A program made the translations under genes and the position numbers. Shown here one piece after another: positions 4,870-19,374 of a DNA stretch of 55,287 nt. How positions within the stretch are numbered: position 1 is the stretch's first letter; the number at the start of each line of letters is the position of its first letter. The stretch covers positions 1 through 55,287 of the forward strand of contig JBKJOZ010000377.1 of the NCBI GenBank assembly GCA_046595315.1. The letters are read 5' to 3'. The notes under the pieces are model-generated. The model did no database searches. It saw nothing but the letters and a program-made list of their open reading frames with translations, and was not told the origin of the DNA. This DNA is from Limisphaerales bacterium. Lineage in GTDB: Bacteria > Verrucomicrobiota > Verrucomicrobiia > Limisphaerales > CANJXF01.

Positions 4870-6030
4870 ATGGGAATTGTTCGTCTGCTTCTCGCGCTCG
4901 CCGTTGTTATCTCGCACATGAGCGAGAGTCTGCCGCTTTTTGCTCGAACGTTACCGGGGTATGTAGCGGTGGAAGGTTTTTATATTATTTCAGGCTTCTA
5001 CATGGCGTTGATCCTAAACGGCAAATACAATTTTCCGGGTTCGACGTGGATTTTTTACAAACAACGCTATCTCAGGCTGGTGCCGATGTATTGGGTCGCG
5101 GCAATTTGTGTCCTCGGGATTGGTGCTCTCTATAGTTTTCGAGCGAACCACATTGTGGGAAAGCTGGAAGCATGGTCTCAATTTGGGGGCAATTTTTCGT
5201 TCTCCACGTTGCTTTTTCTTTGCGTTTCGCAAGCCACAATGCTTGGGCTTGATTCAGTGATGTTTTTGGGATTGTCGGGCGATCCCCTGACAATGCACTT
5301 CACGACTAATTGGGCGGCGGAGCAATTGCCCGCTGTGAAATTCATGCTGGTTCCGCCAGCCTGGAGTTTATCGGTTGAATTGTTATTTTATCTGGTTGCT
5401 CCATTCATCGTGCGCCGCAGCGTGCGCTTTCAACTCGCCTTCGTTGCGTTTACTTTTGCGCTTAGAATTTCCGCCGCTCAGATGTTCAACCTTTCCGAAG
5501 ACCCATGGCACAATCGATTCTTTCCCTTTGAAGCAGGACTTTTTGTTCTGGGATCACTCGCTTACCGCTTTCTTCCCCGTGCGGAAAATTTCATCCGAAG
5601 CCAACCCGTAACGCGCCATGCCTTCACGCTGGCGATGTGCGCTGCCGTTTTTTTCTACAAAGGCGTTCCCCTGCCTGAAGAAATGCGTCGTTGGGGATTT
5701 CTGGCGCTGACGCTATTGTCAATCCCGCTGCTCTTTGCCGCAACACAACGCAACGTCGCTGATCGAAAAATCGGTGAAATTTCCTATCCACTTTATCTTT
5801 TGCACCCCATCACTCTGTTCGCAGCCGAACCAATTTTAAGAAGATTGCACGGATTGCCCCAGGAAATTGCTATTTTGACAGTGCCGATAGTTGTTGCTGT
5901 TGGCGCATACGTCCTCATCGAAAGGCCATTTGAAGCATGGCGAAGCAGATTTTTTGAACGCCAACTCAAGAGTCAGACAAGACCTTCTTTTTCGGAAGCC
6001 GAACAACCTGCTTTGACAAAATCCGAGTAA
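4870..6030 (+). CDS. Acyltransferase family 3 (OafA/WecH-like integral membrane O-acyltransferase)
   Basis: 386 aa and polytopic (about 10 hydrophobic segments). The N-terminal RLLLALAVVISH-type motif and overall pattern resemble acyltransferase_3. An in-frame stop lies 12 nt upstream of the ATG. Confidence 0.8.
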   Translation: MGIVRLLLALAVVISHMSESLPLFARTLPGYVAVEGFYIISGFYMALILNGKYNFPGSTWIFYKQRYLRLVPMYWVAAICVLGIGALYSFRANHIVGKLEAWSQFGGNFSFSTLLFLCVSQATMLGLDSVMFLGLSGDPLTMHFTTNWAAEQLPAVKFMLVPPAWSLSVELLFYLVAPFIVRRSVRFQLAFVAFTFALRISAAQMFNLSEDPWHNRFFPFEAGLFVLGSLAYRFLPRAENFIRSQPVTRHAFTLAMCAAVFFYKGVPLPEEMRRWGFLALTLLSIPLLFAATQRNVADRKIGEISYPLYLLHPITLFAAEPILRRLHGLPQEIAILTVPIVVAVGAYVLIERPFEAWRSRFFERQLKSQTRPSFSEAEQPALTKSE

Positions 6031-6121
6031 TATCTCGCCGATTCGCGCCGTTTTCGGTTCACCTTACGTTTCCTTGATACAATGCTCGCCCTGTTGTTAC
6101 ACTTTTGGCACCTTCAACTGG

Positions 6122-6985
6122 ATGAGTGCGAAAAGTGAAGTTATGTCCGAGCTACAAACCGTCGAGCGTGTGATACGCCCAAAGAACGGCTTGGCGGCGC
6201 TCGACTTTTCTGAACTTTGGCGGTACCGCGAACTTTTCCTGCAACTCGCATGGAGAAACGTTCTCATCCGTTACAAGCAAACGTATCTCGGAATTTCATG
6301 GGCTATCTTACAACCATTGCTGACGACCGTCGTTTTCACCATCATCTTTGGCAAAATCGCGAAACTGCCAGACCTAGGAGTGCCTTATGCAGTGCTGACC
6401 TTCGCCGGATTGATTCCATGGCAATTTTTTGCGAACGCGTTGACTGAAAGCAGCAACTCACTGGTGATGTCCCAGAACATGGTGACAAAAATCTATTTTC
6501 CGCGAGTCGTCCTTCCTACAGCCGCAGTTCTGAGTGGCTGCATGGATTTTCTAATCACGCTCGGTTTGCTCGTGGGATTTATGATTTGGTATTCAATCCC
6601 GCCTACGCCTTATCTGTTTTTGCTTCCCTTATTTTTTGCAGCGGCTTTTCTTGCTTCGATGGCGGTCGGAATCTGGTTCAGCGCGCTCAATGTTAAATAT
6701 CGCGACGTAAAATACATTGTGCCGTTCATCGTGCGAATCGGTTTCTTCGCCAGTCCCGTCGCATTCTTGTCAAACCTGACCGTGCCGGAAAAGTGGCGGT
6801 TTTGCTACAACTCCTTGAATCCGATGGCTGGAATCATCGAAGGCTTTCGCTTTTGCATTTTGGGACCAAAATTTCAACCGTATTGGCCCGGCTTCTGGGC
6901 GGGTATGGCTGTCGTGTTGTTTCTTCTGGTCACGGGTGCGTATTATTTTCGCACCACGGAAAAAACTTTTGCCGATGTCATTTAA
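6122..6985 (+). CDS. wzm: ABC-2 type polysaccharide export permease (Wzm/TagG-like)
   Basis: About 287 aa from ATG 6122; the ORF track begins at TTG 6074. It has six hydrophobic segments and the motifs YRELFLQLAWRNVLIRYKQTYLGISWAILQPLL and VKYRDVKYIVPF. It is directly followed by the ATPase gene. Confidence 0.85.
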   Translation: MSAKSEVMSELQTVERVIRPKNGLAALDFSELWRYRELFLQLAWRNVLIRYKQTYLGISWAILQPLLTTVVFTIIFGKIAKLPDLGVPYAVLTFAGLIPWQFFANALTESSNSLVMSQNMVTKIYFPRVVLPTAAVLSGCMDFLITLGLLVGFMIWYSIPPTPYLFLLPLFFAAAFLASMAVGIWFSALNVKYRDVKYIVPFIVRIGFFASPVAFLSNLTVPEKWRFCYNSLNPMAGIIEGFRFCILGPKFQPYWPGFWAGMAVVLFLLVTGAYYFRTTEKTFADVI

Positions 6986-6987
6986 GC

Positions 6988-8310
6988 ATGTCCGCCACCA
7001 TCATTTCAGTCCGTAATCTTGGAAAACAATATCGCTTGGGCGCTGCGTTAGCCCATGACAGCTTACGCGACCAAATTGCGCACAGCCTCAGAAACATCAC
7101 TTCAGCCTTTCGGAAAAATGAATCGGAAAAACCAACACGCACCAACGAATTTTGGGCGTTAAAAGATGTTTCTTTCGACGTGAAGGAAGGCGACGTCATC
7201 GGCATTATCGGACGGAATGGCGCGGGGAAATCCACTTTACTCAAAATTCTCAGCCAAATCACCGAACCCACTTGCGGCGAGATTCGCGTGCGTGGCCGCA
7301 TCGCCAGCCTTTTGGAAGTCGGCACTGGCTTTCATCCCGAACTCAGCGGACGAGAAAATATTTTCTTGAACGGCGCAATTCTAGGAATGAAGAAACGGGA
7401 GATTCAAGCGAAGTTCGATGAGATCGTTGAATTTTCTGAAGTCGAAAAATTTCTCGACACACCAGTCAAACGATATTCCTCCGGCATGTATGTGAAACTC
7501 GCTTTTGCTGTCGCCGCACATTTGGAACCGGAAATTCTCGTGGTCGATGAAGTGCTTGCAGTGGGGGACATCCAATTTCAAAAAAAATGTCTCGGGAAAA
7601 TGGCGGATGTTTCACGCTCTGGGCGCACTGTTCTTTTTGTCAGCCACAATCTTGCGGCCGTGCAAAAACTTTGCACTCGGGGAATTCTGCTGGAGCAAGG
7701 CATTTTGAAACATGACGGCGAAACCGCCGATTGCATTGCAAAATATCTTCGAGGCACCAAAGAAGTTCATGGCGAATTTCTCGGATACAATGTGGTCAAC
7801 GATGTTCTGGAGCGTCAGGCAACCGACGCTCCTATCCGAATCACTGAAATCGAAATGTTCAATTCGGAGCAACAACCGCTGCAACATCTGAACACGAACG
7901 AAAGTTTTACGTTGCGCACACATTACGCGTGCAAAGGGGATTTCGCGCGCGGCGCCGTGTCGTTCATGATCAGCATCAAGACGCATCTCGGCCAGGAGAT
8001 TTGCCGTCTCAGCACCATGCCCATCAGCGGCTACAACATTGATGAACTCGGCCAAGCAGGATATTTAGATTTGAAGGTTTGCAATCTACCGTTGGTCGGC
8101 GGGCGCTATTTATTAGATGTAAAAATTTTTCGACCCGCAGTCGAAACAATTCTAGTTCTGCCGGAAGTCGTCGCGTTTGAAGTTGCACCAACCGACGTTT
8201 ACAACAGCGGAATCGGAATGGATCAAACCCGCGGACTGTTCGTGGTCAACCACTGTTGGAACCATCACATCAGCGAACCCAAACAAAAACTGGAACCGGC
8301 GCAATCATGA
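6988..8310 (+). CDS. wzt: Polysaccharide ABC exporter ATP-binding protein (Wzt/TagH-like) with ~190-aa C-terminal extension
   Basis: ATG at 6988, 2 nt after the wzm stop. It has Walker A GRNGAGKST, signature YSSGMYVKLAFA and Walker B ILVVDEVLAVGD. The C-terminal part (from about nt 7735) is predicted beta-rich, as in Wzt carbohydrate-binding domains. Confidence 0.9.
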   Translation: MSATIISVRNLGKQYRLGAALAHDSLRDQIAHSLRNITSAFRKNESEKPTRTNEFWALKDVSFDVKEGDVIGIIGRNGAGKSTLLKILSQITEPTCGEIRVRGRIASLLEVGTGFHPELSGRENIFLNGAILGMKKREIQAKFDEIVEFSEVEKFLDTPVKRYSSGMYVKLAFAVAAHLEPEILVVDEVLAVGDIQFQKKCLGKMADVSRSGRTVLFVSHNLAAVQKLCTRGILLEQGILKHDGETADCIAKYLRGTKEVHGEFLGYNVVNDVLERQATDAPIRITEIEMFNSEQQPLQHLNTNESFTLRTHYACKGDFARGAVSFMISIKTHLGQEICRLSTMPISGYNIDELGQAGYLDLKVCNLPLVGGRYLLDVKIFRPAVETILVLPEVVAFEVAPTDVYNSGIGMDQTRGLFVVNHCWNHHISEPKQKLEPAQS

Positions 8311-9275
8311 TCGGCTTTGGTAAAAAAGTTTTAAAATCCTGCGGCTTCCGGCGCGAGGAACTCCAATCCCTCTGGCTCCAGTTGAATTGCCTCGTTCCCC
8401 TGAAATATCTGCACGTTTGGATTTCGCAACCTGCGTTATTTATTCGCTGGTTTCAAAACAAGCTCGCCGGTCGAACCATTGTTTGTTTCCCAGATCAACC
8501 CCGCGAGCTTGGCTACGAAATTGTCAAAATCAGCCTGATTCTTGGCCTGCGAATTCGCAAGGAATCCGAGCGGCCTCATCTTGGATTGGCTTGGCAGGAC
8601 ACGACCGTCCGAACTTGTTCGTTGCCGCCAAAACCCGCTTATTTTCTCAACAGTCGCTGCCCGGATATTGGCAAAGATAAAATCGAAGAAGTGTTTGAAT
8701 CCGTTTTCGGCTACCCGCTGCGCATTGATCCGACCAAACACAACGGCACTTGCGCCAGAAAATCGGTGCTCAACGCCAAGCACGACGGCATCGTGGTGAA
8801 TTGCCCGATTGAAAAATCTGACCCCGGCTACGTCTATCAACGGCTCATCAATAATAAATTCGATGACGAACACATTTTCGATCTACGCACGCCTTACTAT
8901 CGCAACACGCTCCCGTTGGTTTATCGAAAACTTCGTCCGATCAAAACGCGTTTCAAAGACGCCAACACGAAGGTGGAACTTTTTCGCACGGAAGATGTTT
9001 TTTCCCCCGCCGAACGCGAACTTCTGCTCAAATTTGGCCGCGCCCTCGATTTGGATTATGGCGGCTTTGACGTTTTGCGCGACGTGGGCACGAATAAAAT
9101 TTACGTGGTCGATGTCAACACGACTCCGTTTGGTCCTCCGGTTGAACTTTCCGCGAGCGATCGGAAAACTGCTCTCGCTATTCTCGCTCCAACTTTTCAA
9201 CAACAATTCATTGATGCGTTTCCCCAGATCGTGCGTGAGCGAACTGCTCGTTCAACGCCAGTTGATTTGAAATAA
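8307..9275 (+). CDS. Hypothetical protein, ATP-grasp-like C-terminal half
   Basis: ATG 8307 overlaps the wzt stop (ATGA). The C-terminal GGFDVLRDVGTNKIYVVDVNTTPFGPP resembles the Mg/ATP-binding end of ATP-grasp ligases (xExN..P, with D in place of E). The N-terminal half is unassigned. Confidence 0.5.
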   Translation: MIGFGKKVLKSCGFRREELQSLWLQLNCLVPLKYLHVWISQPALFIRWFQNKLAGRTIVCFPDQPRELGYEIVKISLILGLRIRKESERPHLGLAWQDTTVRTCSLPPKPAYFLNSRCPDIGKDKIEEVFESVFGYPLRIDPTKHNGTCARKSVLNAKHDGIVVNCPIEKSDPGYVYQRLINNKFDDEHIFDLRTPYYRNTLPLVYRKLRPIKTRFKDANTKVELFRTEDVFSPAERELLLKFGRALDLDYGGFDVLRDVGTNKIYVVDVNTTPFGPPVELSASDRKTALAILAPTFQQQFIDAFPQIVRERTARSTPVDLK

Positions 9276-9281
9276 ATACCA

Positions 9282-10604
9282 GTGCCTATGTTACAACTCC
9301 CAAAAGTCGGCTTAGGCTCAGCGAAACTTTTCAAGCTGCTGAACGAGGCAAAAAAGTCGGATGCGAATTGGAAAAACGGCCGGACCTGGAGCCTTGTTTA
9401 CCATGCTGGAGAAAAACATACGCAGCAGTTACTCGACGTTTACAAAATATTCTTTGCGGCAAACGGATTGAGCCCTGCGGCGTTTCCCAGTTTGGGTCGA
9501 TTTGAAAAAGAAGTCGTCAAAATCATGGCCGGTCTTTTGGGCGGGGGCGATCAAGCAGCCGGCACCATGACTTCCGGCGGAACGGAAAGCATTCTGTTGG
9601 CGGTAAAAGCTCACCGAGATTGGTTTCGCAAAAAAAATTCAAAACTTCGTCGGGTGCAAATCGTGATTCCGGCCAGCGCACATCCGGCGTTTTACAAAGC
9701 AGCCCATTATTTTGATTTGGAACCGGTGACGGTGGATTTGAATTCCGCATTCCGACTTGAAGCAAACGAGGTGGCCAATGCGATTACGAAAAATACCGCG
9801 CTCATTGTTGCCTCGGCTCCGTCCTATCCTTACGGAATGGTTGATCCAATTGGGGAACTGGGCGCCCTCGCCCAGCGCCGTAAAATCGGCTTGCACGTCG
9901 ATGCTTGTTTGGGCGGCGCCTTTTTGCCGTTCATGAAAAAACTTGGGCACGCCGTGCCGAAGTTTGATTTTTCTGTCCCCGGTGTTACTTCAATTTCGGC
10001 GGATCTCCATAAATACGGTTTCGCCACCAAGGGAACTTCAGTGGTTCTCTATCGCGATTCTGCGCTCCGACGATTCCAATTTTTTGCCAAGCCAGATTGG
10101 CTCGGTGGCGCCTACGCTTCACCGGCAATGCTTGGAACGCGACCCGGCGGCGGTATCGCCTCAGCATGGGCCAGCCTGATGCTGCTCGGTGAAAATGGCT
10201 ACCTCCAGCTCGTAAAGAAAACATTGAAGCTGCGTGCACAATTATTTGCCGGAATCAAAATTGCAGGATTTAAAATCGTCGGCCAACCCGACATGAGTGT
10301 ATTTTGTTTTACTTCAGATCATTTCGACATTTTCTCCGTCGCCGAGAAACTGGAAAAAAAAGGCTGGCGGATTGATCGTCAGAAAAGTCCGCCTTCGATT
10401 CACATGATTGTAACGCAAAATCATGAAAAATCGGTGAGTGAATTTCTTTGCGACCTGAAAGTGATCGCTGCGACAGAGCCGAAGCGAGACGCCCGGAAAC
10501 CCATCTCTGCTTCTATTTCACTTTACGGCGTCACCAATAAATTTAGCGCCGGAGCTGATCTGGTGGAATCACTTTATCGCGCCATGGAATCCGTTTACGA
10601 TTGA
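9282..10604 (+). CDS. PLP-dependent enzyme of the sphingosine-1-phosphate lyase / group II decarboxylase family (soluble, no N-terminal TM)
   Basis: 440 aa. The start is GTG 9282 or ATG 9288. It has MTSGGTESILLAVKAHRDW and the PLP-lysine motif SISADLHKYGFATKGTSVVLYR, followed by DWLGGAYASPAMLGTRPGG and KKGWRIDRQKSPPSIHM. From memory these closely parallel SGPL1/Dpl1/StSPL. Confidence 0.8.
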   Translation: MPMLQLPKVGLGSAKLFKLLNEAKKSDANWKNGRTWSLVYHAGEKHTQQLLDVYKIFFAANGLSPAAFPSLGRFEKEVVKIMAGLLGGGDQAAGTMTSGGTESILLAVKAHRDWFRKKNSKLRRVQIVIPASAHPAFYKAAHYFDLEPVTVDLNSAFRLEANEVANAITKNTALIVASAPSYPYGMVDPIGELGALAQRRKIGLHVDACLGGAFLPFMKKLGHAVPKFDFSVPGVTSISADLHKYGFATKGTSVVLYRDSALRRFQFFAKPDWLGGAYASPAMLGTRPGGGIASAWASLMLLGENGYLQLVKKTLKLRAQLFAGIKIAGFKIVGQPDMSVFCFTSDHFDIFSVAEKLEKKGWRIDRQKSPPSIHMIVTQNHEKSVSEFLCDLKVIAATEPKRDARKPISASISLYGVTNKFSAGADLVESLYRAMESVYD

Positions 10605-10625: not shown

Positions 10626-12821
10626 ATGCCACGCGAAACCCCAAAACTTTCCTTGCAACAGCCGGAAAACAATCCGCTAAAAACGTTAGCTGCGTCGCGG
10701 GAAATTTCGTTTTCAGGAATCACTCCGTCTCAGGCAAAACTTTTGGACGCAGCCTTGGCGAAAGCGGAAGTTGGTTTGTGCGGCTACTCAACCGCCCTCT
10801 CGGTTCGCGCCACTCTCGAAGTGGATTTTCAAATCGCTGCTGGGCAAATTATTCTCAGCCCGCGCGCGTTTTTTTCGGTGCCGATTCTTAGTTTGCACTT
10901 GCGGCACGCGATTGAATTAACGCTCTGGTCCGAATTGTGTTCACACCAACTCGATCCAACTCGCTCCCTCGCCATCACCCTTTTGGCTGCGTTCACGACC
11001 ACAAAGTTTTTCCTCCAAATGCCACCGTTCGAACGGCAACAAATGGCGCTGGAAATTCCGGACTGGCTCAAAGAGAGCGCGGAAACTGCGGAGATGCTTT
11101 CGGTTAAACAAATTTTTCAAACATTGGGGACGCATCTCCATTCGTTGTTGGCGCTGCAAGAAACGCAATTGGAAACCTCATCGCCAATTGAAGAAGGGAT
11201 TGCCCTCGCCATGAAATACGCGGGCGTGGCAAATCCGACGGAATTTATTCTCACCCAACAAGGCGATGAACGCCTTTTGATCGACCCCGCGACCGGTCTC
11301 AACAGATACGGCTGCAGCCCGCGTCCGCGCCCGGATGCAATCACATTTTCGTCGTGTACCGCATCGTCCGTTTCCGAATATGCCTATCGTGAAACAGAGC
11401 TGCTGCGGCAGCGGTTGATGCAAACGCTGGCGCACGAAAATCTTTCCGAGCAATACGAAATCGAAATTGAATCCGTGCGAAGCAATTTGCGCGAAGTACT
11501 CAATCTCGATGCACGCGAAACGGAAATTATTTTATGCTCCTCTGGAACCGACGTTGAACTTTACCCTCTGGTTTTGCTTCGCTCGGCCGGGAAAACGCTG
11601 GTGAATATTATTGTAGCGCCGGACGAGGTTGGGACCGGCACTGTCTTGGCGGCGGGAGGGCGGCATTTTAGCTCCCATTCTCCGCTTGGAGTGACCCTGC
11701 GCCAAGGCGAGCCGGTTCTGGATGTAGATGCCAGTTCCATTGAAGTCGTTTCCATTCCGATTCGAAAAAATGGCAGCTCCAGTGTGGCCGAAAAGGAATT
11801 AAAAGAGCTCCTCACCGCCGCCATCACGAAAGCAGCCGAGACGGCTGATAACATTATTCTTCACATTGTTGATAACACCAAAACTGGCGTGGTCGCGCCG
11901 GATACAGATTTCGTTCTTGCACTCAAGAAAACCGTGGGCGAAAAACTTCGCGTGGTGGTTGATGCCTGCCAGTTTCGCCTCGAAAAAAGCAACTTGCATC
12001 GCTACCTCTCACACGGTTTTTGCGTGCTGATTACAGGGTCAAAATTTTTTACAGGCCCCCCTTTTTGCGGTGCGCTCTTGATTCCAGCCCAAGTTCAATC
12101 CACCTCCACCAAGGATCCTTTTCCACGAGGATTCGCCGATTATTTTACGCGTAGCGAAATCCCGCCATCATTGCAATCAAGGTCACAACATCTTTCTTCG
12201 GAATTAAATCTAGGTTTACTTTTCCGCTGGGTCGGCGCGCTCAAAGAAATGAAGTATTTTTACAGCGTTTCTTCACCGCAAAGGACGGAGATTTTGCAGA
12301 TGTTTCGCAGTCAACTGATCGCCAGCATTTCCGCCAACGCAGATTTGCTCCTTCTGGAATGTCCGCCATTGCATCGCTGGGAACACGCGGACCAATCACT
12401 TTGGGATGCGCACCCCACGATTTTTTCCTTTGCCGTCCGAGATCCCAATTCGATGGAAGAAAATCAATGGCTGCAAGTTCGTGAACTGAAAAAAATTTAT
12501 TATTTGCTCAATCGCGATTGCTCTATCCAACTACCAAAATTCGCCTTTGAAAACGAGCGCAGCCTTGCCGCTCAGAAATGTCATATCGGCCAGCCGGTCA
12601 TCATTTCCCGCTGCCCGGGAAATGGCGAATCGGGCGCGTTGCGGATCGCTTGCGGCGCCCGCCTCGTTTACGGAATTACTTACGACGAATCGCTTGGCCT
12701 TACTCCACAAGCTCGATTTCAAAGAGAGTTGACCGATGCCCAAACCGTTCTGGCAAAAATTTCCTTGATTCTAAAATACTGGAGCAATCTGTGCGGAGAC
12801 GGGGCATCCGTGAGAAAATAA
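10626..12821 (+). CDS. Large hypothetical protein with a class-V (NifS/MOCOS-like) PLP-fold core and unassigned ~230-aa N-terminal and ~230-aa C-terminal regions
   Basis: 731 aa. The motif series is ILCSSGTDVELYP ... VVVDACQFRL ... LITGSKFFTGPPFCGALLIP, which matches the SGT-D, DAxQ and S-x-K pattern of class-V aminotransferase folds. No TM segment or signal peptide. Confidence 0.55.
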   Translation: MPRETPKLSLQQPENNPLKTLAASREISFSGITPSQAKLLDAALAKAEVGLCGYSTALSVRATLEVDFQIAAGQIILSPRAFFSVPILSLHLRHAIELTLWSELCSHQLDPTRSLAITLLAAFTTTKFFLQMPPFERQQMALEIPDWLKESAETAEMLSVKQIFQTLGTHLHSLLALQETQLETSSPIEEGIALAMKYAGVANPTEFILTQQGDERLLIDPATGLNRYGCSPRPRPDAITFSSCTASSVSEYAYRETELLRQRLMQTLAHENLSEQYEIEIESVRSNLREVLNLDARETEIILCSSGTDVELYPLVLLRSAGKTLVNIIVAPDEVGTGTVLAAGGRHFSSHSPLGVTLRQGEPVLDVDASSIEVVSIPIRKNGSSSVAEKELKELLTAAITKAAETADNIILHIVDNTKTGVVAPDTDFVLALKKTVGEKLRVVVDACQFRLEKSNLHRYLSHGFCVLITGSKFFTGPPFCGALLIPAQVQSTSTKDPFPRGFADYFTRSEIPPSLQSRSQHLSSELNLGLLFRWVGALKEMKYFYSVSSPQRTEILQMFRSQLIASISANADLLLLECPPLHRWEHADQSLWDAHPTIFSFAVRDPNSMEENQWLQVRELKKIYYLLNRDCSIQLPKFAFENERSLAAQKCHIGQPVIISRCPGNGESGALRIACGARLVYGITYDESLGLTPQARFQRELTDAQTVLAKISLILKYWSNLCGDGASVRK

Positions 12822-12824
12822 TCT

Positions 12825-14003
12825 TTGCCCATGCACGCTTGTTTTATTTGCAACGAATATCCGCCTGCGCCCCACGGTGGCACCGGTTCCTCCTATCGCG
12901 ATTTGGCGGAGGGACTTGTTGCCGCTGGACATCAGGCAACCGTCGTCGGCGTTTATGCCAAAAAAAACGGCGGCGGCAGTGAGGAAAAATTAAATGGCGT
13001 GCGCGTGGTTCGGCTTGTTCCTTCGCCAACTTTATTACGCTACAAACTGGGCGCATTAACGGACCGTTATCGTATCTCCCGCTGGCTGGATTGCGAAAAT
13101 AAAAGGACGCCCTTCGATGTGATTGAGGCATCCGACTACGATGGCTGGTTGCGTTTTGGCGGGCCAAAAAATGTTGCGACCGTAGTGCGAATCAGAGGTT
13201 CAAATTATTTTTTTGACACGGAATTACAGCGTCCGGGCAATGCTTTTGAACACAATCTGGAGCGCGAAGCGTTGGCGCGGGCCCATGTCATTGGAGCTGT
13301 TTCACGTTACGCGGCAAAGCAAACGCTGGAGATTTGTAAACTCGCACATCGCCCTTGCACGATTCTTTACAACGCGGTGGACACAGAGCTTTTTTCCCCG
13401 AGCGATGCGGTGAAGATCGAACCGGGGTTGATCATTTTCGTTAATTACATCAATCCAAAAAAAGGAATTGAACAACTGATCGACGCGATGAATATCGTTT
13501 GCCAGTCGCATTCTGAAGCAAAACTTGTCGCAGTTGGACAAGACACGCAAAAGCCAGAGAACGGAAAAACTTATTTGGAAAAATTGAAACAACGAATTCG
13601 CCCCGAATTTCGTGAACGAATTATTTTCACTGGTCGCCTTGATCGCTACAAAGGCGTCGTCGAACAACTTCGTCGCGCTCATATCTGTTGTTATCCATCG
13701 CATATGGAAACATTTGGCATCGCCCCCCTTGAAGCGATGTCGGTGGGCAAGCCGACGATTTTTTCCAAAACCGGGCCAGGGCCGGAAATCATTGAGGACG
13801 GAATTTCCGGTTTGCTTTGCGATCCCCGTTCACCCGAAGACATCGCCGCGAAAATAATGGTTTTGCTCAAGGACGCGCCGCTCGCCAAAATGATGGGCGC
13901 CAACGCCCGGCAAAGAGTTGAAGCGCACTTCGGGAAAAAGGATTGGGTGCGTCGGAACCTGGAATTTTATCACAACTGCGTAACGAACTTGAAAAAGACG
14001 TAG
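12825..14003 (+). CDS. Glycosyltransferase family 4 (GT-B, retaining type)
   Basis: 392 aa. The start is TTG 12825 or ATG 12831. The E-x7-E region reads CYPSHMETFGIAPLEAMSVGKPTIFSKTGPGPEII. Confidence 0.85.
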   Translation: MPMHACFICNEYPPAPHGGTGSSYRDLAEGLVAAGHQATVVGVYAKKNGGGSEEKLNGVRVVRLVPSPTLLRYKLGALTDRYRISRWLDCENKRTPFDVIEASDYDGWLRFGGPKNVATVVRIRGSNYFFDTELQRPGNAFEHNLEREALARAHVIGAVSRYAAKQTLEICKLAHRPCTILYNAVDTELFSPSDAVKIEPGLIIFVNYINPKKGIEQLIDAMNIVCQSHSEAKLVAVGQDTQKPENGKTYLEKLKQRIRPEFRERIIFTGRLDRYKGVVEQLRRAHICCYPSHMETFGIAPLEAMSVGKPTIFSKTGPGPEIIEDGISGLLCDPRSPEDIAAKIMVLLKDAPLAKMMGANARQRVEAHFGKKDWVRRNLEFYHNCVTNLKKT

Positions 14004-14006
14004 GCC

Positions 14007-15503
14007 ATGCTTTTCAATTCATACGTTTTTATTTTCCTGTTCCTGCCCATGTCATTGCTCGTTTTCTTTCAACTGGGCAAACGCGGTTACTATCGGGCTG
14101 CCATCGGTTCGGTGGTTTTGTTCTCGTTCTTTTTCTACGGCTGGTGGGATCCGCGTTATCTGTGGCTGATCGCCGGATCGATGATTTTTAACTACGCCGC
14201 CGGAGTTCGTCTCAGTCTTGGCGCAAAAAGTTTCAAAGCCAAAACTGTCCTGACTCTTTCCGTGGCGGTTAACCTCGCTCTGCTGGGCTATTACAAATAC
14301 GCAAATTTCTTTGTCGAGAATTTGAATACTCTTTCCGGCACTTCGTTTCATCTTCAACAAATTATTCTGCCACTGGGCATTTCCTTTTTTACTTTTACGC
14401 AAATCGCTTATCTCGTGGACGCGTATCGTGGCGAAACGAAGGAATACAACCTTCTGGATTATGGCTTGTTCGTGGTTTTTTTCCCTCACCTGATTGCCGG
14501 CCCCATCATTCATCACAAAGACATCATCCCGCAATTTGAGGATAAAAAAATCTTCCAACCCGATTGGAGTCATCTCTCCACTGGCATTTCCATTTTCGTC
14601 ATTGGGTTGTATAAAAAAGTTGTTCTCGCCGATACGATGGCGGTCTTTGCCAGCCCGATTTTTATCGCGGCAAACAGAGGGGACGCATTGCATTTTTACG
14701 GTTCGTGGGGCGGAGCCTTGGCCTACACGCTACAAATCTATTTCGATTTTTCAGGCTATTCCGACATGGCCATCGGGCTGGCCAGAATGTTCGGCGTCCT
14801 GTTTCCGATCAACTTTCATTCGCCCTATAAAGCAGTAAATATTGTGGAGTTCTGGCGGCGCTGGCACATGACGCTCTCCCGATTTTTGCGTGATTACCTG
14901 TATATTTCCCTTGGCGGAAATCGCTCAGGAAATTTGCGGCGCTATTTCAATATCTTTATCACCATGTTGCTCGGTGGAATCTGGCATGGTGCCGGGTGGA
15001 CATTTGTGGTGTGGGGCGCGCTCCATGGCATTTATCTGATCGGCAATCACGCTTGGCACCATTCGCGCCGTATGCTTGGACAAGATCCAAACCAAAGCAC
15101 GAAATTCGGGAGAGCCGTGTCGATTTTGCTCACCTTCATCTTCGTTGTGATTGGCTGGATATTTTTCCGCGCTGAAACCTTCCACTCCGCCATACTGATT
15201 TTGAAGGGAATGATTCATTTGCAGGAAATTGCTTTCACCATGACAGAGGTAAAAACCGCTTATCACCAAATCCTCTGGACTTGGGGACTCCTCGCCGTTG
15301 TCTGGTTTTTGCCCAACACCCAACAAATTATGGCCCGTTTCCAACCGGCATTGGATTTTCCTGCAAAAGGCAAATCCCTTCCCATGCCCAATCGAATCGC
15401 CTGGCAGCCGAACTTTATTTGGGCGCTTTTCATCTCGTTCGCATTTCTGGTCGCGGTGATGCACCTGTCTCAAATCACAGAATTCCTATATTTTCAATTT
15501 TGA
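14007..15503 (+). CDS. MBOAT family membrane O-acyltransferase (AlgI/DltB-like)
   Basis: 498 aa and polytopic. MBOAT-typical segments include FSGYSDMAIGLARMFG, FWRRWHMTLSRFLRDYLYISLGGNR and the conserved His region GGIWHGAGWTFVVWG. Confidence 0.9.
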   Translation: MLFNSYVFIFLFLPMSLLVFFQLGKRGYYRAAIGSVVLFSFFFYGWWDPRYLWLIAGSMIFNYAAGVRLSLGAKSFKAKTVLTLSVAVNLALLGYYKYANFFVENLNTLSGTSFHLQQIILPLGISFFTFTQIAYLVDAYRGETKEYNLLDYGLFVVFFPHLIAGPIIHHKDIIPQFEDKKIFQPDWSHLSTGISIFVIGLYKKVVLADTMAVFASPIFIAANRGDALHFYGSWGGALAYTLQIYFDFSGYSDMAIGLARMFGVLFPINFHSPYKAVNIVEFWRRWHMTLSRFLRDYLYISLGGNRSGNLRRYFNIFITMLLGGIWHGAGWTFVVWGALHGIYLIGNHAWHHSRRMLGQDPNQSTKFGRAVSILLTFIFVVIGWIFFRAETFHSAILILKGMIHLQEIAFTMTEVKTAYHQILWTWGLLAVVWFLPNTQQIMARFQPALDFPAKGKSLPMPNRIAWQPNFIWALFISFAFLVAVMHLSQITEFLYFQF

Positions 15504-15510
15504 TGTTCCG

Positions 15511-16653
15511 ATGAGCAACGCAAAAGATTTCGAACCGGGGGCCAACGGACTGATGGAGTCAACACAGGCTTCAGCCAAAAATATTTACCGAAAATATTTG
15601 AGCGTATTTTTCAGCGTATTCGCCGTGCTTTCGGTAATTTTGGTCGCGGTTAATTGGTGGATCGATCCGCTTCAGTTTTATCGTCGCGCCGCCTATCCGC
15701 CCTATCTCAGCGGCCAGAAAAGGTTTCAAAATCCCGGCCTCGCTAAACATTACGATTACAATGCAGTGGTGATCGGAACGTCTTTGTCGGAAAATTTTCG
15801 CGCTAAACTCATCAAAGAAAAACTCGGTTTCGATTCCATCAACTTTTCCATGCAGGGCGCTTCCGCCCACGAGCAATCATTGATGCTGCAGCTCGCATTG
15901 CAGACCGGTAAAGTTAAAAATGTTGTTTGGGATGTGCAGTATGAATATTTACGAGGCGATCCAAAGTGGGTGGCCAATTACGATGGAACTTTTCCCTATT
16001 ATTTTTACGACAACAACCCATTTAATGAGATTCATAATTATCTGCTGAACATTGATACGACCAAGAGCAGTTTGAAAATTCTTTTGAAAAGAATCGGTCT
16101 GCACACCTACCAGAGCCAAGACCTGGAAATGCTCTACACGTGGGACACAAAAAAGAAATTTGGCAAAGCCAGCGTGCGGAAGGCGTGGGAACGCGCCACA
16201 ATTCTGCGCCCCGCTTTGCGAAAGCAAAGTTCCGAATTTGCATTGGCCAACCTGAACGCGAACTTCGACATCCATTTCCTGAGTCTGATTAAAAAACATC
16301 CCGAAGTGACCTTTTATCTTTATTTTCCTCCGTTCACGCCGGGCTATTACGTCAATCTCATCGCGGTGTCTCCGGTCATTTTTGAAAACATGCTAGAAAA
16401 CAAAAAATATATTTTCAGCCAGGTGCGCGATTTAAAAAATGTTGAGATCTATGATTTTCAAACCCTGCCCGGTATGATTTTAAATGTGGAAAATTTTTGC
16501 GACGCAATGCATTTCAATCCTGCCGTGAGCGAATACATTATTGATTCGATGGCGGCGCGGCGACATTTAGCCGTCTCAACGGACGCGGAAGAACTAAAGG
16601 CCCTGGTCGCCGGCCCAAAAACGTCGGAGTGGATGGAAACAATTTTGCATTGA
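15511..16653 (+). CDS. Membrane-anchored SGNH-like partner of the MBOAT (DltD/AlgX/DUF1574-like)
   Basis: 380 aa with a single N-terminal TM (YLSVFFSVFAVLSVILVAVNWW). It has a candidate nucleophile block VVIGTSLSENF and a C-terminal D-x-x-H block (FCDAMHFNP), placed as in DltD. It begins 8 nt after the MBOAT stop. Confidence 0.5.
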   Translation: MSNAKDFEPGANGLMESTQASAKNIYRKYLSVFFSVFAVLSVILVAVNWWIDPLQFYRRAAYPPYLSGQKRFQNPGLAKHYDYNAVVIGTSLSENFRAKLIKEKLGFDSINFSMQGASAHEQSLMLQLALQTGKVKNVVWDVQYEYLRGDPKWVANYDGTFPYYFYDNNPFNEIHNYLLNIDTTKSSLKILLKRIGLHTYQSQDLEMLYTWDTKKKFGKASVRKAWERATILRPALRKQSSEFALANLNANFDIHFLSLIKKHPEVTFYLYFPPFTPGYYVNLIAVSPVIFENMLENKKYIFSQVRDLKNVEIYDFQTLPGMILNVENFCDAMHFNPAVSEYIIDSMAARRHLAVSTDAEELKALVAGPKTSEWMETILH

Positions 16654-16669
16654 CGATTCGTCCTACTGC

Positions 16670-17920
16670 ATGTCGCAAAGACTGAACATACTTTGGCTGA
16701 AAACGGGGCCGCTTCATCCGTTGGATACCGGCGGAAAAATTCGCACTTACAACATGCTGCGGGAATTAAAGAAAAAGCATGAGATAACTTTTCTGGCGCT
16801 TTGTTCCCCGGACACAAATAAAACGGCCCAATCTGATGCCGGGGAATTTTCTCATCGGCAAATCTGGATTCCGTGGAAAGAAACGCCTAAACGCAGTCTC
16901 CGTTTTTTTCTAAACCTGGCCGGCAATTTGTTTGCCAGCGGGCCTTACGTGATTCAGAAATATTTTTCGCGGGCCATGTCTGGAAAAATTCGGGAACTCG
17001 ACGCCAGCGGGCAATTCGATCTTATTGTTTGTGATTTTTTGACACCCGCCGTAAATCTTTTCGCGCGAAATCATAAAAACAAAACGCCCACGTTATTATT
17101 TCAACACAATGTTGAATCTTTGATCTGGAAACGGCTTTTTGAAAATGGCGGGGGATTTTTGAAGCGCGCCTACTTCAAAATCCAGTGGAAACGGATGGAA
17201 AAGTTTGAGCGGGAGACTTGCGCCCGGTGCAATGCGGTGGTGGGCGTTTCTGAGGACGATTGCAAGATTCTTCAAGCTCAATTTAATCTAAAAAACATAC
17301 TCGGAGCTGTTCCGACGGGGGTGGATCTTTCCTTTTTTAGTCCTCCCATTCATCCGAGAAAATCATGCTCGCTGGTTTTTCTTGGATCGATGGATTGGAT
17401 GCCGAACATTGATGCGATCTGCTATTTCGCGGAAACAATTTTTCCAAAAATTAAGAAAGAGTTTCCCGCCTCAACCCTTCGCGTCGTCGGTAGAAATCCT
17501 GTGCCACGCGTCAAAAATTTGGAAAAAGCCCACACCGGAATTTCTGTCACTGGAACTGTGGCCGATGTTCGTCCCTATTTAGCTGAGGCTGAAGTGATGA
17601 TCGTCCCTCTTCGTGTCGGCGGCGGGACTCGTATTAAGATTTATGAAGGAATGGCCACAGGGATTCCCATTGTTTCCTCAACTATCGGAGCGGAGGGGTT
17701 GCCGGTCGCTCACGGTGAAAACATTTTTTTGGCGGATTCGCCTGAAGATTTTGCACAGCAGATTTGCCAATTGTTCGCCAACCCAAGACTGGGAAAAAGC
17801 GTGGGACATAATGGTCGCACTCTTGTTCAGCGCCAATTCGGATGGGAATCCGTGACAAAAGTTTTTGAACGCTATTGCCTCGAAGTGAGCGACGGGGGTG
17901 GTAATTTAAGTTCGGGCTAA
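16670..17920 (+). CDS. Glycosyltransferase family 4, resembling the PEP-CTERM/EpsH1-system-associated 'stp1' type (TIGR03087, from memory)
   Basis: 416 aa. The N-terminus is ILWLKTGPLHPLDTGGKIRTYNMLRELKKKHEITFLAL. It also has FLGSMDWMPNIDAICYF and VPLRVGGGTRIKIYEGMATGIPIVSSTIGAEGL. It is a paralogue of the gene at 50589-51830. Confidence 0.85.
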   Translation: MSQRLNILWLKTGPLHPLDTGGKIRTYNMLRELKKKHEITFLALCSPDTNKTAQSDAGEFSHRQIWIPWKETPKRSLRFFLNLAGNLFASGPYVIQKYFSRAMSGKIRELDASGQFDLIVCDFLTPAVNLFARNHKNKTPTLLFQHNVESLIWKRLFENGGGFLKRAYFKIQWKRMEKFERETCARCNAVVGVSEDDCKILQAQFNLKNILGAVPTGVDLSFFSPPIHPRKSCSLVFLGSMDWMPNIDAICYFAETIFPKIKKEFPASTLRVVGRNPVPRVKNLEKAHTGISVTGTVADVRPYLAEAEVMIVPLRVGGGTRIKIYEGMATGIPIVSSTIGAEGLPVAHGENIFLADSPEDFAQQICQLFANPRLGKSVGHNGRTLVQRQFGWESVTKVFERYCLEVSDGGGNLSSG

Positions 17921-19374
17921 TGAACCGCGACTGGAGGTTGCGTTCCGATCATTTGTGTTTTCGAAAGCACCGTTGTGTCGAAAAGGTCTTTCGTTTTCTT
18001 TTCACAAACGCCCCCCCGTAAAATAATCCGCACGGTATCCAGAAGGATAAACACATCCAAAAACAATTTCATGTTTTTGGTGTAATAAAGATCGTATTCG
18101 AGCTTGCGCCGCGCATCTTCGACCGTAGCGCCATAAGGATAATGGACTTGTGCCCAGCCAGTAATGCCAGGCTGTACCATTAATCGCTCTTGAAAATAAG
18201 GGATTTTTTGCGCCAGTTCCTTCACAAACTCCGGTCTCTCTGGGCGCGGGCCAACAAACGACATTTCACCGCGTAGGACATTGATAAGTTGCGGAATCTC
18301 ATCAACTCGATATTTGCGGAGAAAATTTCCGATTGGAGTCACGCGTGAATCATGTTTTTGCGCCCAAACCGCTCCCTCTTTCTCGGCATCAATGCGCATG
18401 GTCCGCAATTTGATGACTTCAAATAATTTACCAAAACGTCCGCATCGAGTCTGACGATAAAAAACGGGCCCTGACGAAGTCGCCTTCACCGCTAGCATGC
18501 CTAAAAGCATGATGGGGCCGAGAAACAACAGTCCCACAAGGGAAGTCGCGATATCAAATCCACGTTTTAATTTCTTGATGTAGAGCATGTGCGGCAGTCC
18601 ACTCGCATTGAGAAGCCACTCCGGCGAGATTAATTCGAGCGGCACCAACTGGTGCACTTCCTCAAACAAGCTGACGAGCGGCATTACCGTAACACCGGAA
18701 TACCGCAACTCACAAAACTGCCGACACATCGCGGGGTCGAGAATACTTTTATTTGTGCACAAGATGCGGCTGATTCTCTCCCTTTGAACGATTTCGAATA
18801 AACTGTTAACTCGACCCAAGACTTTCATGGTGCCGAGTGGCTCGTAAGAGTCGTAACGAACCAGTCCCGCCAGTTCTAAATTTTGTTTCCCGAAAGTTTG
18901 GAAAAGGCGAGCCTCCATTTCATCGAAGGAACAACTGACAATAAAGGCTACCCGTTCTCGATAATTATGAAGCAAATGCAGCAACACTGCGTGGTGGATG
19001 AGAATCAAGACGTAGGCAACAGGAAAACTCCGCAACATCACACCGCGTCCAATCGCCATTGTTTTGATGATGTAGAACAAGCCAAACATGATGGCAAAGG
19101 CTCCGGCGATGCAAAAAATAATAATTAAAGAACGTTTAAAAAGTCCTTCATTGGCACTTTGCGGAGAGTAAAGGCCAAATATATAAATTGCGCTGGGGAC
19201 AAAGAATGCACCTAATAAAATTCCCGGCCAGTAAGATGAAAATTTTTGGCCAACTTCGTCTGGAAGACGCCAATAGGTTGCAATCAGAAAGGCCGCGCAA
19301 AAAATAATGACATCCATTGCGAAATGCAGCGAGACGTGGAGCCAATGCTGTTTTAAAATTCCGTTGGTATTCAT
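17917..19374 (-). CDS. Exopolysaccharide polyprenyl-phosphate glycosyl-1-phosphate transferase (large WbaP/EpsB-type initiating enzyme)
   Basis: 485 aa from ATG 19374; the upstream 83-codon extension of the ORF is not protein-like. It has N-terminal TM segments and the C-terminal sugar-transferase domain KRGFDIATSLVGLLFLGPIMLL, FEVIKLRTM, VDEIPQLINVLRGEMSFVGPRP and QPGITGWAQV. Confidence 0.9.
   Translation of the reverse strand: MNTNGILKQHWLHVSLHFAMDVIIFCAAFLIATYWRLPDEVGQKFSSYWPGILLGAFFVPSAIYIFGLYSPQSANEGLFKRSLIIIFCIAGAFAIMFGLFYIIKTMAIGRGVMLRSFPVAYVLILIHHAVLLHLLHNYRERVAFIVSCSFDEMEARLFQTFGKQNLELAGLVRYDSYEPLGTMKVLGRVNSLFEIVQRERISRILCTNKSILDPAMCRQFCELRYSGVTVMPLVSLFEEVHQLVPLELISPEWLLNASGLPHMLYIKKLKRGFDIATSLVGLLFLGPIMLLGMLAVKATSSGPVFYRQTRCGRFGKLFEVIKLRTMRIDAEKEGAVWAQKHDSRVTPIGNFLRKYRVDEIPQLINVLRGEMSFVGPRPERPEFVKELAQKIPYFQERLMVQPGITGWAQVHYPYGATVEDARRKLEYDLYYTKNMKLFLDVFILLDTVRIILRGGVCEKKTKDLFDTTVLSKTQMIGTQPPVAVH

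Follow-up and report, generated by a model that had tools for sequence, protein, structure and literature searches.

A sphingosine-1-phosphate-lyase-like enzyme and a second PLP-fold protein within a Wzm/Wzt-type glycan-export operon of a Limisphaerales bacterium

The lyase-like protein and its active site

The stretch of DNA analysed here, referred to as the window, is contig JBKJOZ010000377.1 of the Limisphaerales bacterium assembly GCA_046595315.1 (phylum Verrucomicrobiota), with a length of 55,287 nucleotides. Within a block of plus-strand genes, it contains an open reading frame for a pyridoxal-5'-phosphate (PLP) enzyme resembling sphingosine-1-phosphate lyase (SPL), here called P0001. 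The genes flanking it upstream and downstream are labelled X and Y, respectively, and the loci with which the window was compared carry L-numbers. The P0001 reading frame starts with the ATG at 9288 or, alternatively, the GTG at 9282, and ends at 10604, coding for 438 to 440 amino acids. The database copy of the protein has 438 amino acids, in agreement with the start at 9288. All four peptides quoted in the original prediction of an SPL-family enzyme, SISADLHKYGFATKGTSVVLYR, FFAKPDWLGGAYASPAMLGTRPGG, LLGENGY and KKGWRIDRQKSPPSIHM, are present in this reading frame.

P0001 was compared with all PDB chains using phmmer. The highest scores are to experimentally characterised lyases: human SGPL1 (E-value 6e-104, 351 bits, query residues 5–418), the Symbiobacterium enzyme StSPL (4e-102, 345 bits), yeast Dpl1 (1e-87, 298 bits) and Burkholderia S1PL (3e-87, 296 bits). 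Matches to decarboxylases follow at a distance, with MfnA (the archaeal tyrosine/aspartate decarboxylase, PDB entry 3F9T) at 5e-33 and 117 bits, GadB at 1e-18, and the glutamate decarboxylases at about 70–76 bits. P0001 belongs to PF00282, the group II PLP decarboxylase family (73 bits, cut-off 27), of which MfnA and GadB, sharing its fold, are also members; MfnA is the nearest decarboxylase subfamily. The protein stays below the cut-offs of the NCBIfam equivalog model for MfnA (TIGR03812, 249.8 bits against 299.4) and of the NCBIfam glutamate decarboxylase model (TIGR01788, 117.3 bits against 380.4). In the aligned core of around 400 residues, the identity is 42.6% to human SGPL1 and 44.0% to StSPL. 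The PLP lysine motif SxSADxHKYG is shared with both of these enzymes (EC 4.1.2.27; PDB entries 4Q6R and 8AYF for SGPL1, 3MAD and 3MAU for StSPL).

Residue 5 of P0001 is the first to be aligned; it is paired with residue 69 of StSPL and residue 115 of the human enzyme, which leaves no room for the N-terminal membrane anchor or flexible region of these proteins. The N-terminal extension in the SPL-like subfamily has a median length of 5 residues. Judged from its sequence, P0001 belongs to the SPL branch of the group II PLP enzymes and is soluble, without a membrane anchor.

Sixty-four sequences, with the human enzyme and StSPL as the only characterised SPLs among them, were placed in a maximum-likelihood tree for which DDC-like decarboxylases provided the root. 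Escherichia coli GadB was tried as outgroup and dropped, having a branch length of 10 and being misplaced. Human SGPL1 and StSPL group with short bacterial homologues in a clade of 17 rows (support 99/99). P0001 and every Y-linked row lie outside this clade, a result that is stable when either of the two long-branched characterised sequences is omitted. P0001 is located in a Verrucomicrobiota clade (98/94), the sister group of which holds locus L094. The four members of the human/StSPL clade for which the genomic context was checked (L091, L092, L095 and L096) are without Y; their SPL-like genes directly adjoin genes of membrane-transport type (AA_permease twice, DUF819 and MFS), an arrangement closer to decarboxylase/antiporter pairs than to lipid catabolism.

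The assignment to the SPL family made in the original prediction is thus borne out by scores far above those to MfnA and the glutamate decarboxylases, and the predicted near-collinearity with the SPL core is retained in a real alignment, as is the absence of an anchor. At the sequence level, P0001 does not come out as an ordinary glutamate, tyrosine or aspartate decarboxylase. The tree sets it apart from the human and Symbiobacterium enzymes. Because P0001 shares neither the N-terminal region nor the clade of the characterised enzymes, we file it as a member of an SPL-like subfamily and not as a sphingosine-1-phosphate (S1P) lyase.

Residue roles in the active site were taken from Table 3 of PMC6148460 and carried onto P0001 through two HMMER alignments. 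Starting from StSPL or from human numbering gives identical P0001 positions, which validates the residue map. The PLP lysine (StSPL K311, human K353) is K244, the PLP aspartate (D274, D315) is D207, and the residues sandwiching the PLP (H201 and C276, H242 and C317) are H134 and C209. The cup holding the PLP phosphate (G168, T169 and H310, in the human enzyme G210, T211 and H352) is formed by G100, T101 and H243, completed from the other subunit by T286 at the position of a serine (S353, S395); this threonine is present in all but one of the aligned bacterial homologues of around 440 amino acids. With regard to the five residues contacting the substrate phosphate, Y40 corresponds to StSPL Y105 and human Y150, N61 to N126 and N171, and K250 to K317 and K359, so that three of the five are kept. 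The other two positions are occupied by S64 (H129, H174) and L38 (A103, T148). The tyrosine at the substrate entry (Y482, Y526) is also kept; it is Y415 in P0001, mapped via the human alignment only, and was found in all 60 homologues examined. In the bacterial homologues of around 440 amino acids, L38 is common to all aligned sequences, and position 64 is mostly serine, otherwise asparagine or glycine. Among the aligned sequences, only the human and Symbiobacterium enzymes have histidine at 64 and alanine or threonine at 38. The Burkholderia S1PL, which is active, carries glutamine and threonine at the H129 and A103 sites (PMC6148460).

Flanking genes and the glycan-export operon

X (8307–9275, plus strand) codes for a protein of 322 amino acids and its ATG overlaps the stop codon of the preceding gene. 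It has no Pfam match, and single-sequence searches of Pfam, NCBIfam and the PDB gave nothing usable. In the AlphaFold2 (AF2) model (pLDDT 93.6), the top PDB matches obtained with Foldseek are all ATP-grasp proteins: DdlB, ArgX/LysX, RimK, PsnB and inositol-phosphate kinases. A profile of the X family matches RimK with an E-value of 3e-5, and the Mg/ATP motif D269-x-N271 is invariant in the family. On the predicted model, X has an ATP-grasp fold. Beside its homologues with 35–45% identity lie genes for MBL-fold hydrolases, for permeases of peptide transport and, in some cases, for glycosyltransferases of family GT4. That the X family might be specific to the SPL-Y module was considered and rejected, the 80 metagenome loci with X homologues carrying neither gene. 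When the X family was compared by hhalign with the PF14397 ATP-grasp genes found elsewhere beside Y, and with three other clusters of Y neighbours, no significant similarity was obtained; for this reason, the X-type and PF14397-type genes are not called orthologues. The Pfam description of PF14397 links it to sugar transfer.

Y (10626–12821, plus strand) is 731 amino acids long. No sequence relative was found for it in Pfam, NCBIfam or the PDB, profile search included. Its AF2 model (pLDDT 88.9) consists of a helical amino-terminal region of around 230 residues, followed by a fold-type I PLP domain of around 500 residues with a class-V-like fold. The PLP domain contains the motifs SSGTD, DACQ and S472-K473, of which D446-A-C-Q449 and S472-K473 are invariant in the Y family. 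Foldseek matches are to a C-S lyase, NifS, SufS, PvdN and SHMT. The model indicates that Y has a class-V-like PLP fold. Relatives of Y are present in 429 GTDB species and account for 2,571 of 1.84 billion representative clusters; Y represents a sizeable orphan family of PLP-fold proteins, without a Pfam model, that recurs in at least four contexts. In one of these, Y follows an SPL-like gene. In another, it is fused to, or located two genes after, a DDC-like decarboxylase: 12 long proteins join a group II decarboxylase resembling DDC or tryptophan decarboxylase to Y, and in Magnetospirillum-type loci the DDC-like gene is two genes upstream. In Acetobacter, Gluconobacter and Asaia, a His_Phos_1 phosphatase gene comes after Y, with rml genes adjoining; this succession occurs in 30 loci of the Acetobacteraceae, with no SPL nearby. 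In Gemmatimonadales, a GH2-like protein of 950 amino acids follows. The notion that Y always accompanies SPL was rejected, as most Y loci, including those of Acetobacteraceae, Gemmatimonadales, Nitrospirales and Magnetospirillum, are without it.

The plus-strand block in which X, P0001 and Y are located begins with a membrane acyltransferase gene (Acyl_transf_3, PF01757, E-value 1e-22) at 4870–6030. This is followed by wzm at 6074–6985, which codes for the ABC-2 permease of the glycan exporter (PF01061, 2e-14) and matches the NCBIfam galactan Wzm/RfbD model weakly; related loci hold copies of it that are 48–65% identical. Next is wzt at 6988–8310, encoding the ABC ATPase (PF00005) with a carboxy-terminal Wzt_C domain (PF14524, 48 bits, cut-off 30.4). 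Mechanically, the Wzt reading frame opens at a GTG at 6793 and overlaps wzm by 193 nucleotides; translation probably starts at the ATG at 6988, 2 nucleotides past the wzm stop, which gives 440 amino acids, similar to homologues such as that of L001 (441 amino acids). After X, P0001 and Y, a GT4 glycosyltransferase (PF00534/PF13439) is encoded at 12825–14003, and copies with 54–68% identity occupy the same position in L001, L002, L009 and L011. A membrane O-acyltransferase of the MBOAT type (DltB/AlgI-like, PF03062, 1e-31) is encoded at 14007–15503; it reaches 189 bits with the DltB model, under the cut-off of that model, and a copy with 44% identity adjoins the SPL-Y pair in L094. The protein of 380 amino acids encoded at 15511–16653 has neither a Pfam nor an NCBIfam match and is possibly a partner of the MBOAT protein, by position only. 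The last gene of the block (16670–17920) codes for a second GT4 protein (TIGR03087-like).

The gaps between the genes around the cassette range from -4 to 21 nucleotides, and no convincing terminator was found between the genes of the block. An ABC-2 permease, an ATPase bearing Wzt_C and GT4 genes lie together in one operon, the arrangement characteristic of a Wzm/Wzt pathway with recognition of the glycan end. The domain matches and tight packing uphold the operon setting proposed in the original prediction, and the ATP-grasp-like gene and second PLP-fold gene that it had placed on either side of the SPL-like gene are recovered as X, from the fold matches and the RimK profile match, and Y, from its predicted fold.

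Distribution of the SPL-Y pair

The nearest homologues of P0001, with 67–89% identity, are found in metagenome-assembled genomes (MAGs) of Verrucomicrobiota. The order Wzm-Wzt(Wzt_C)-X-SPL-Y-GT4 is kept in L001, L009 and L011. In L002, also from Verrucomicrobiota, the cassette order is kept with a protein of 519 amino acids in the place of X. This protein (8445–10004 of L002) has no Pfam match, and between it and Wzt there are two methyltransferase genes, reminiscent of WbdD-type terminators.

Fifteen distinct loci, from at least four phyla, have an SPL-like gene immediately before Y. They are the window, L001, L002, L005, L009, L011, L014, L015, L017, L019, L025, L031, L033, L093 and L094. 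The hosts, represented by MAGs and metagenome contigs, include Verrucomicrobiota, Gammaproteobacteria, Burkholderiales and Desulfobacteraceae. An ATP-grasp gene adjoins the pair in 11 of the 15 loci, being of the X type in four and of the PF14397 type in seven, and lies either before or after it. A natural fusion, P0310 (1,187 amino acids), joins an SPL-like domain with 49% identity to P0001 to Y. The literature was searched for the SPL-Y-ATP-grasp triad, phosphoserine decarboxylase and PF14397 with nothing relevant retrieved, and no description of the module was found; the module is a conserved, previously undescribed set of three enzymes, with a fixed SPL-Y core and the ATP-grasp protein usually present.

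In L094, which represents a separate lineage, the gene order is MBOAT-(320–380-aa protein)-SPL-Y-Wzm-GH43-like-Wzt(Wzt_C)-methyltransferase, with MBOAT, Wzm and Wzt proteins 44–62% identical to those of the window. An MBOAT gene followed by one for a protein of 320–380 amino acids is thus found beside SPL-Y in two lineages (14007–16653 in the window, 4372–6821 in L094), and these two proteins could perform an extracytoplasmic O-acylation step on the glycan. In L005, sulfate-activation genes of the CysNC and CysD types lie around 5 kb from the SPL-Y-ATP-grasp genes (15404–18219); this single locus hints that the anionic group could be sulfur-based and the product taurine-like.

The SPL-like gene is present as a single copy in its own MAG (3.2 Mb, 83% complete), and 400 genomes sampled from its phylum yielded no further homologue at an E-value of 1e-40 or lower. 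The cassette is thus rare and patchy in Verrucomicrobiota, in the manner of a serotype-type decoration.

Proposed role and alternatives

The explanation we favour, tentatively and at somewhat less than an even chance, is that the SPL-like enzyme and Y make an anionic amine with which the ATP-grasp enzyme amidates the exported glycan. The two PLP enzymes would produce a small amine bearing an anionic group, for which phosphoethanolamine is the leading guess, since SPL itself yields it as its amine product. The part of Y in making it is a guess. Two routes can be envisaged in the retained pocket of Y40, N61 and K250: the retro-aldol cleavage of a short 2-amino-3-hydroxy phosphate, or the decarboxylation of O-phosphoserine, with the carboxylate placed where C3 of a sphingoid base would lie, on the scissile bond. 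The ATP-grasp enzyme would then join the amine, through an amide bond, to a carboxyl group of the ABC-exported glycan or of its chain end, and the modified chain end may be read by the carboxy-terminal domain of Wzt. The DDC-like decarboxylases occupying the place of SPL beside Y in other loci suggest an amine-forming role of the decarboxylase type for the SPL-like partner, and decarboxylase-type chemistry on an acidic or phosphorylated amino acid would fit no less well than a retro-aldol lyase reaction. The phosphatase that accompanies Y in Acetobacteraceae hints at phosphorylated products or intermediates. The original prediction of an amino-alcohol substituent, as opposed to sphingolipid turnover, is strengthened by the adjacency of SPL and Y across phyla, the fusion, the recurring ATP-grasp gene and the separate clade; as to the substituent itself, it stays inferential.

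A pathway of this type is known for the HS:2 capsule of Campylobacter jejuni, which is exported by an ABC-transporter-dependent pathway. There, Cj1436 decarboxylates L-serine phosphate to ethanolamine phosphate, Cj1437 transaminates dihydroxyacetone phosphate to serinol phosphate, the ATP-dependent amidoligase Cj1438C amidates glucuronate with the aminoalcohol phosphate, and the phosphatase Cj1435 then removes the phosphate (PMC11800397). The likeness to the window, two PLP enzymes and an ATP-dependent ligase in an ABC-exported glycan locus, is one of function and architecture only, and the phosphatase has its parallel in the partner of Y in Acetobacteraceae. The window differs in that no sequence relative of Y could be detected in the PDB and in that neither a phosphatase nor a uronic-acid synthesis gene was seen in it. 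Cj1436 is a CobD-like class I/II enzyme and not of the SPL branch. The module would be a non-homologous counterpart of Cj1436, Cj1437 and Cj1438C.

In E. coli O9a, the chain is ended by a terminator of the WbdD type, which adds a phosphomethyl cap that is read by the carboxy-terminal domain of Wzt. The Wzt of the window also carries Wzt_C, and the translationally coupled next gene encodes a modifying enzyme that is not a glycosyltransferase; unlike the O9a locus, the window is without a WbdD-type kinase/methyltransferase. That the product of the module is a chain-end cap is pure conjecture. In its specific form, in which the SPL-like/Y/ATP-grasp pathway supplies aminoethyl-phosphate or a related amine as a chain-terminating cap read by Wzt in Verrucomicrobiota, we regard it as improbable. 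Should it be true, O-antigens or exopolysaccharides would have a new kind of terminator, and the SPL family a new reaction.

Several observations weigh against the amidation of a glycan with a phosphorylated amine. Two of the five substrate-phosphate positions are changed in P0001 (S64 and L38), as they are in all the bacterial homologues of around 440 amino acids examined, so that the bound anion need not be phosphate. The fold of Y is no closer to aminotransferases than to desulfurases and C-S lyases. No gene for uronic-acid synthesis was recognised in the window, and SPL or Y was found beside the more distant X homologues (35–45% identical) in none of the 80 metagenome loci. No Wzm/Wzt homologue is present within the fetched DNA of nine of the 15 SPL-Y loci, and in the seven of these loci without Wzm/Wzt that were scanned for neighbours, glycan genes are merely scattered. 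The SPL-Y-ATP-grasp core thus also exists outside glycan loci, and the link with glycans is not universal.

This last point is the basis for supposing that the product of the triad is a small molecule that stays free (for example an osmolyte, a signal, or an amide- or peptide-like metabolite), and that the placement of the triad in a glycan operon is incidental or secondary. The triads of L005, L014, L015, L017, L025, L031 and L093 have neither Wzm/Wzt nor an adjacent glycosyltransferase, their neighbours are heterogeneous, and in L003 a decarboxylase::Y fusion is located amid genes of small-molecule metabolism. However, two lineages, the Verrucomicrobiota group and L094, hold SPL-Y in Wzm/Wzt loci with MBOAT and glycosyltransferase genes, the genes of the window are translationally chained to wzt and a GT4 gene, the neighbours in L014 include heparinase-like and Wzy_C or Polysacc_synt-type genes, and PF14397 is linked to sugar transfer; we consider a free metabolite unlikely. 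If instead the glycan is the acceptor, the amine could come from a non-phosphorylated acidic amino acid decarboxylated by P0001 (aspartate to beta-alanine, glutamate to GABA, or cysteate or cysteine sulfinate to taurine or hypotaurine), with the ATP-grasp enzyme ligating it and the likeness to SPL reflecting ancestry, not chemistry. The MfnA model score of 250 bits, little below the cut-off of 299, the serine in place of H129/H174 and the sulfate-activation genes near the L005 triad are in line with this, as are the amino-acid permeases adjoining relatives in the clade of the characterised SPLs. Elsewhere, Y is partnered by genuine group II decarboxylases, in many cases as a fusion, and their occurrence in the place of SPL favours a decarboxylase-type role. 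On the other side, the scores in bits to lyases are around three times those to any decarboxylase, the phosphate-site residues Y40, N61 and K250 and the entry tyrosine are strictly conserved, and the phosphatase accompanying Y in Acetobacteraceae indicates phospho-compounds. Decarboxylation of a non-phosphorylated amino acid appears unlikely, if slightly less so than a free metabolite.

Very improbable, in our view, is an ordinary sphingoid-base-phosphate lyase acting on the bacterium's own or scavenged sphingolipids and located by chance in a polysaccharide locus, even though the top PDB matches are characterised SPLs and P0001 has an intact PLP site and a largely intact substrate site. Symbiobacterium and Burkholderia are known to possess soluble SPLs with S1P-cleaving activity (PMC6148460). 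Against such a role stand the conserved adjacency and fusion to Y and the translational chaining with glycan genes. The absence of the N-terminal region of StSPL and the eukaryotic enzymes, the position outside the clade of the human and Symbiobacterium SPLs, and the single copy, with no counterpart in the 400 other sampled genomes of the phylum, also speak against it. P0001 differs from these two enzymes in its genomic surroundings as well, with Y next to it, an ATP-grasp gene usually near and a glycan-export operon around it.

More than 7,900 SPL-like homologues were retrieved, and soluble forms are very common in bacteria not known for sphingolipid synthesis. For one SPL-like subfamily, the locus provides a testable handle, through the partnership with Y, the fusion, the ATP-grasp gene and two independent placements in glycan loci. 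If true, amidation of the glycan with an anionic amine made by P0001 and Y would entail a new reaction for the SPL fold, a function for an orphan PLP family that extends to culturable Acetobacteraceae and Magnetospirillum, and a second, non-homologous route to the decoration of surface polysaccharides with aminoalcohol phosphates.

The window contains a second block of glycan genes, where a stand-alone protein similar to non-ribosomal peptide synthetases (44272–46956), with adenylation, carrier and thioesterase parts, adjoins a Wzx-like flippase and GT2 and GT4 genes. In L001, separate AMP-binding and PP-binding genes and an FkbH_N protein are located near the cassette.

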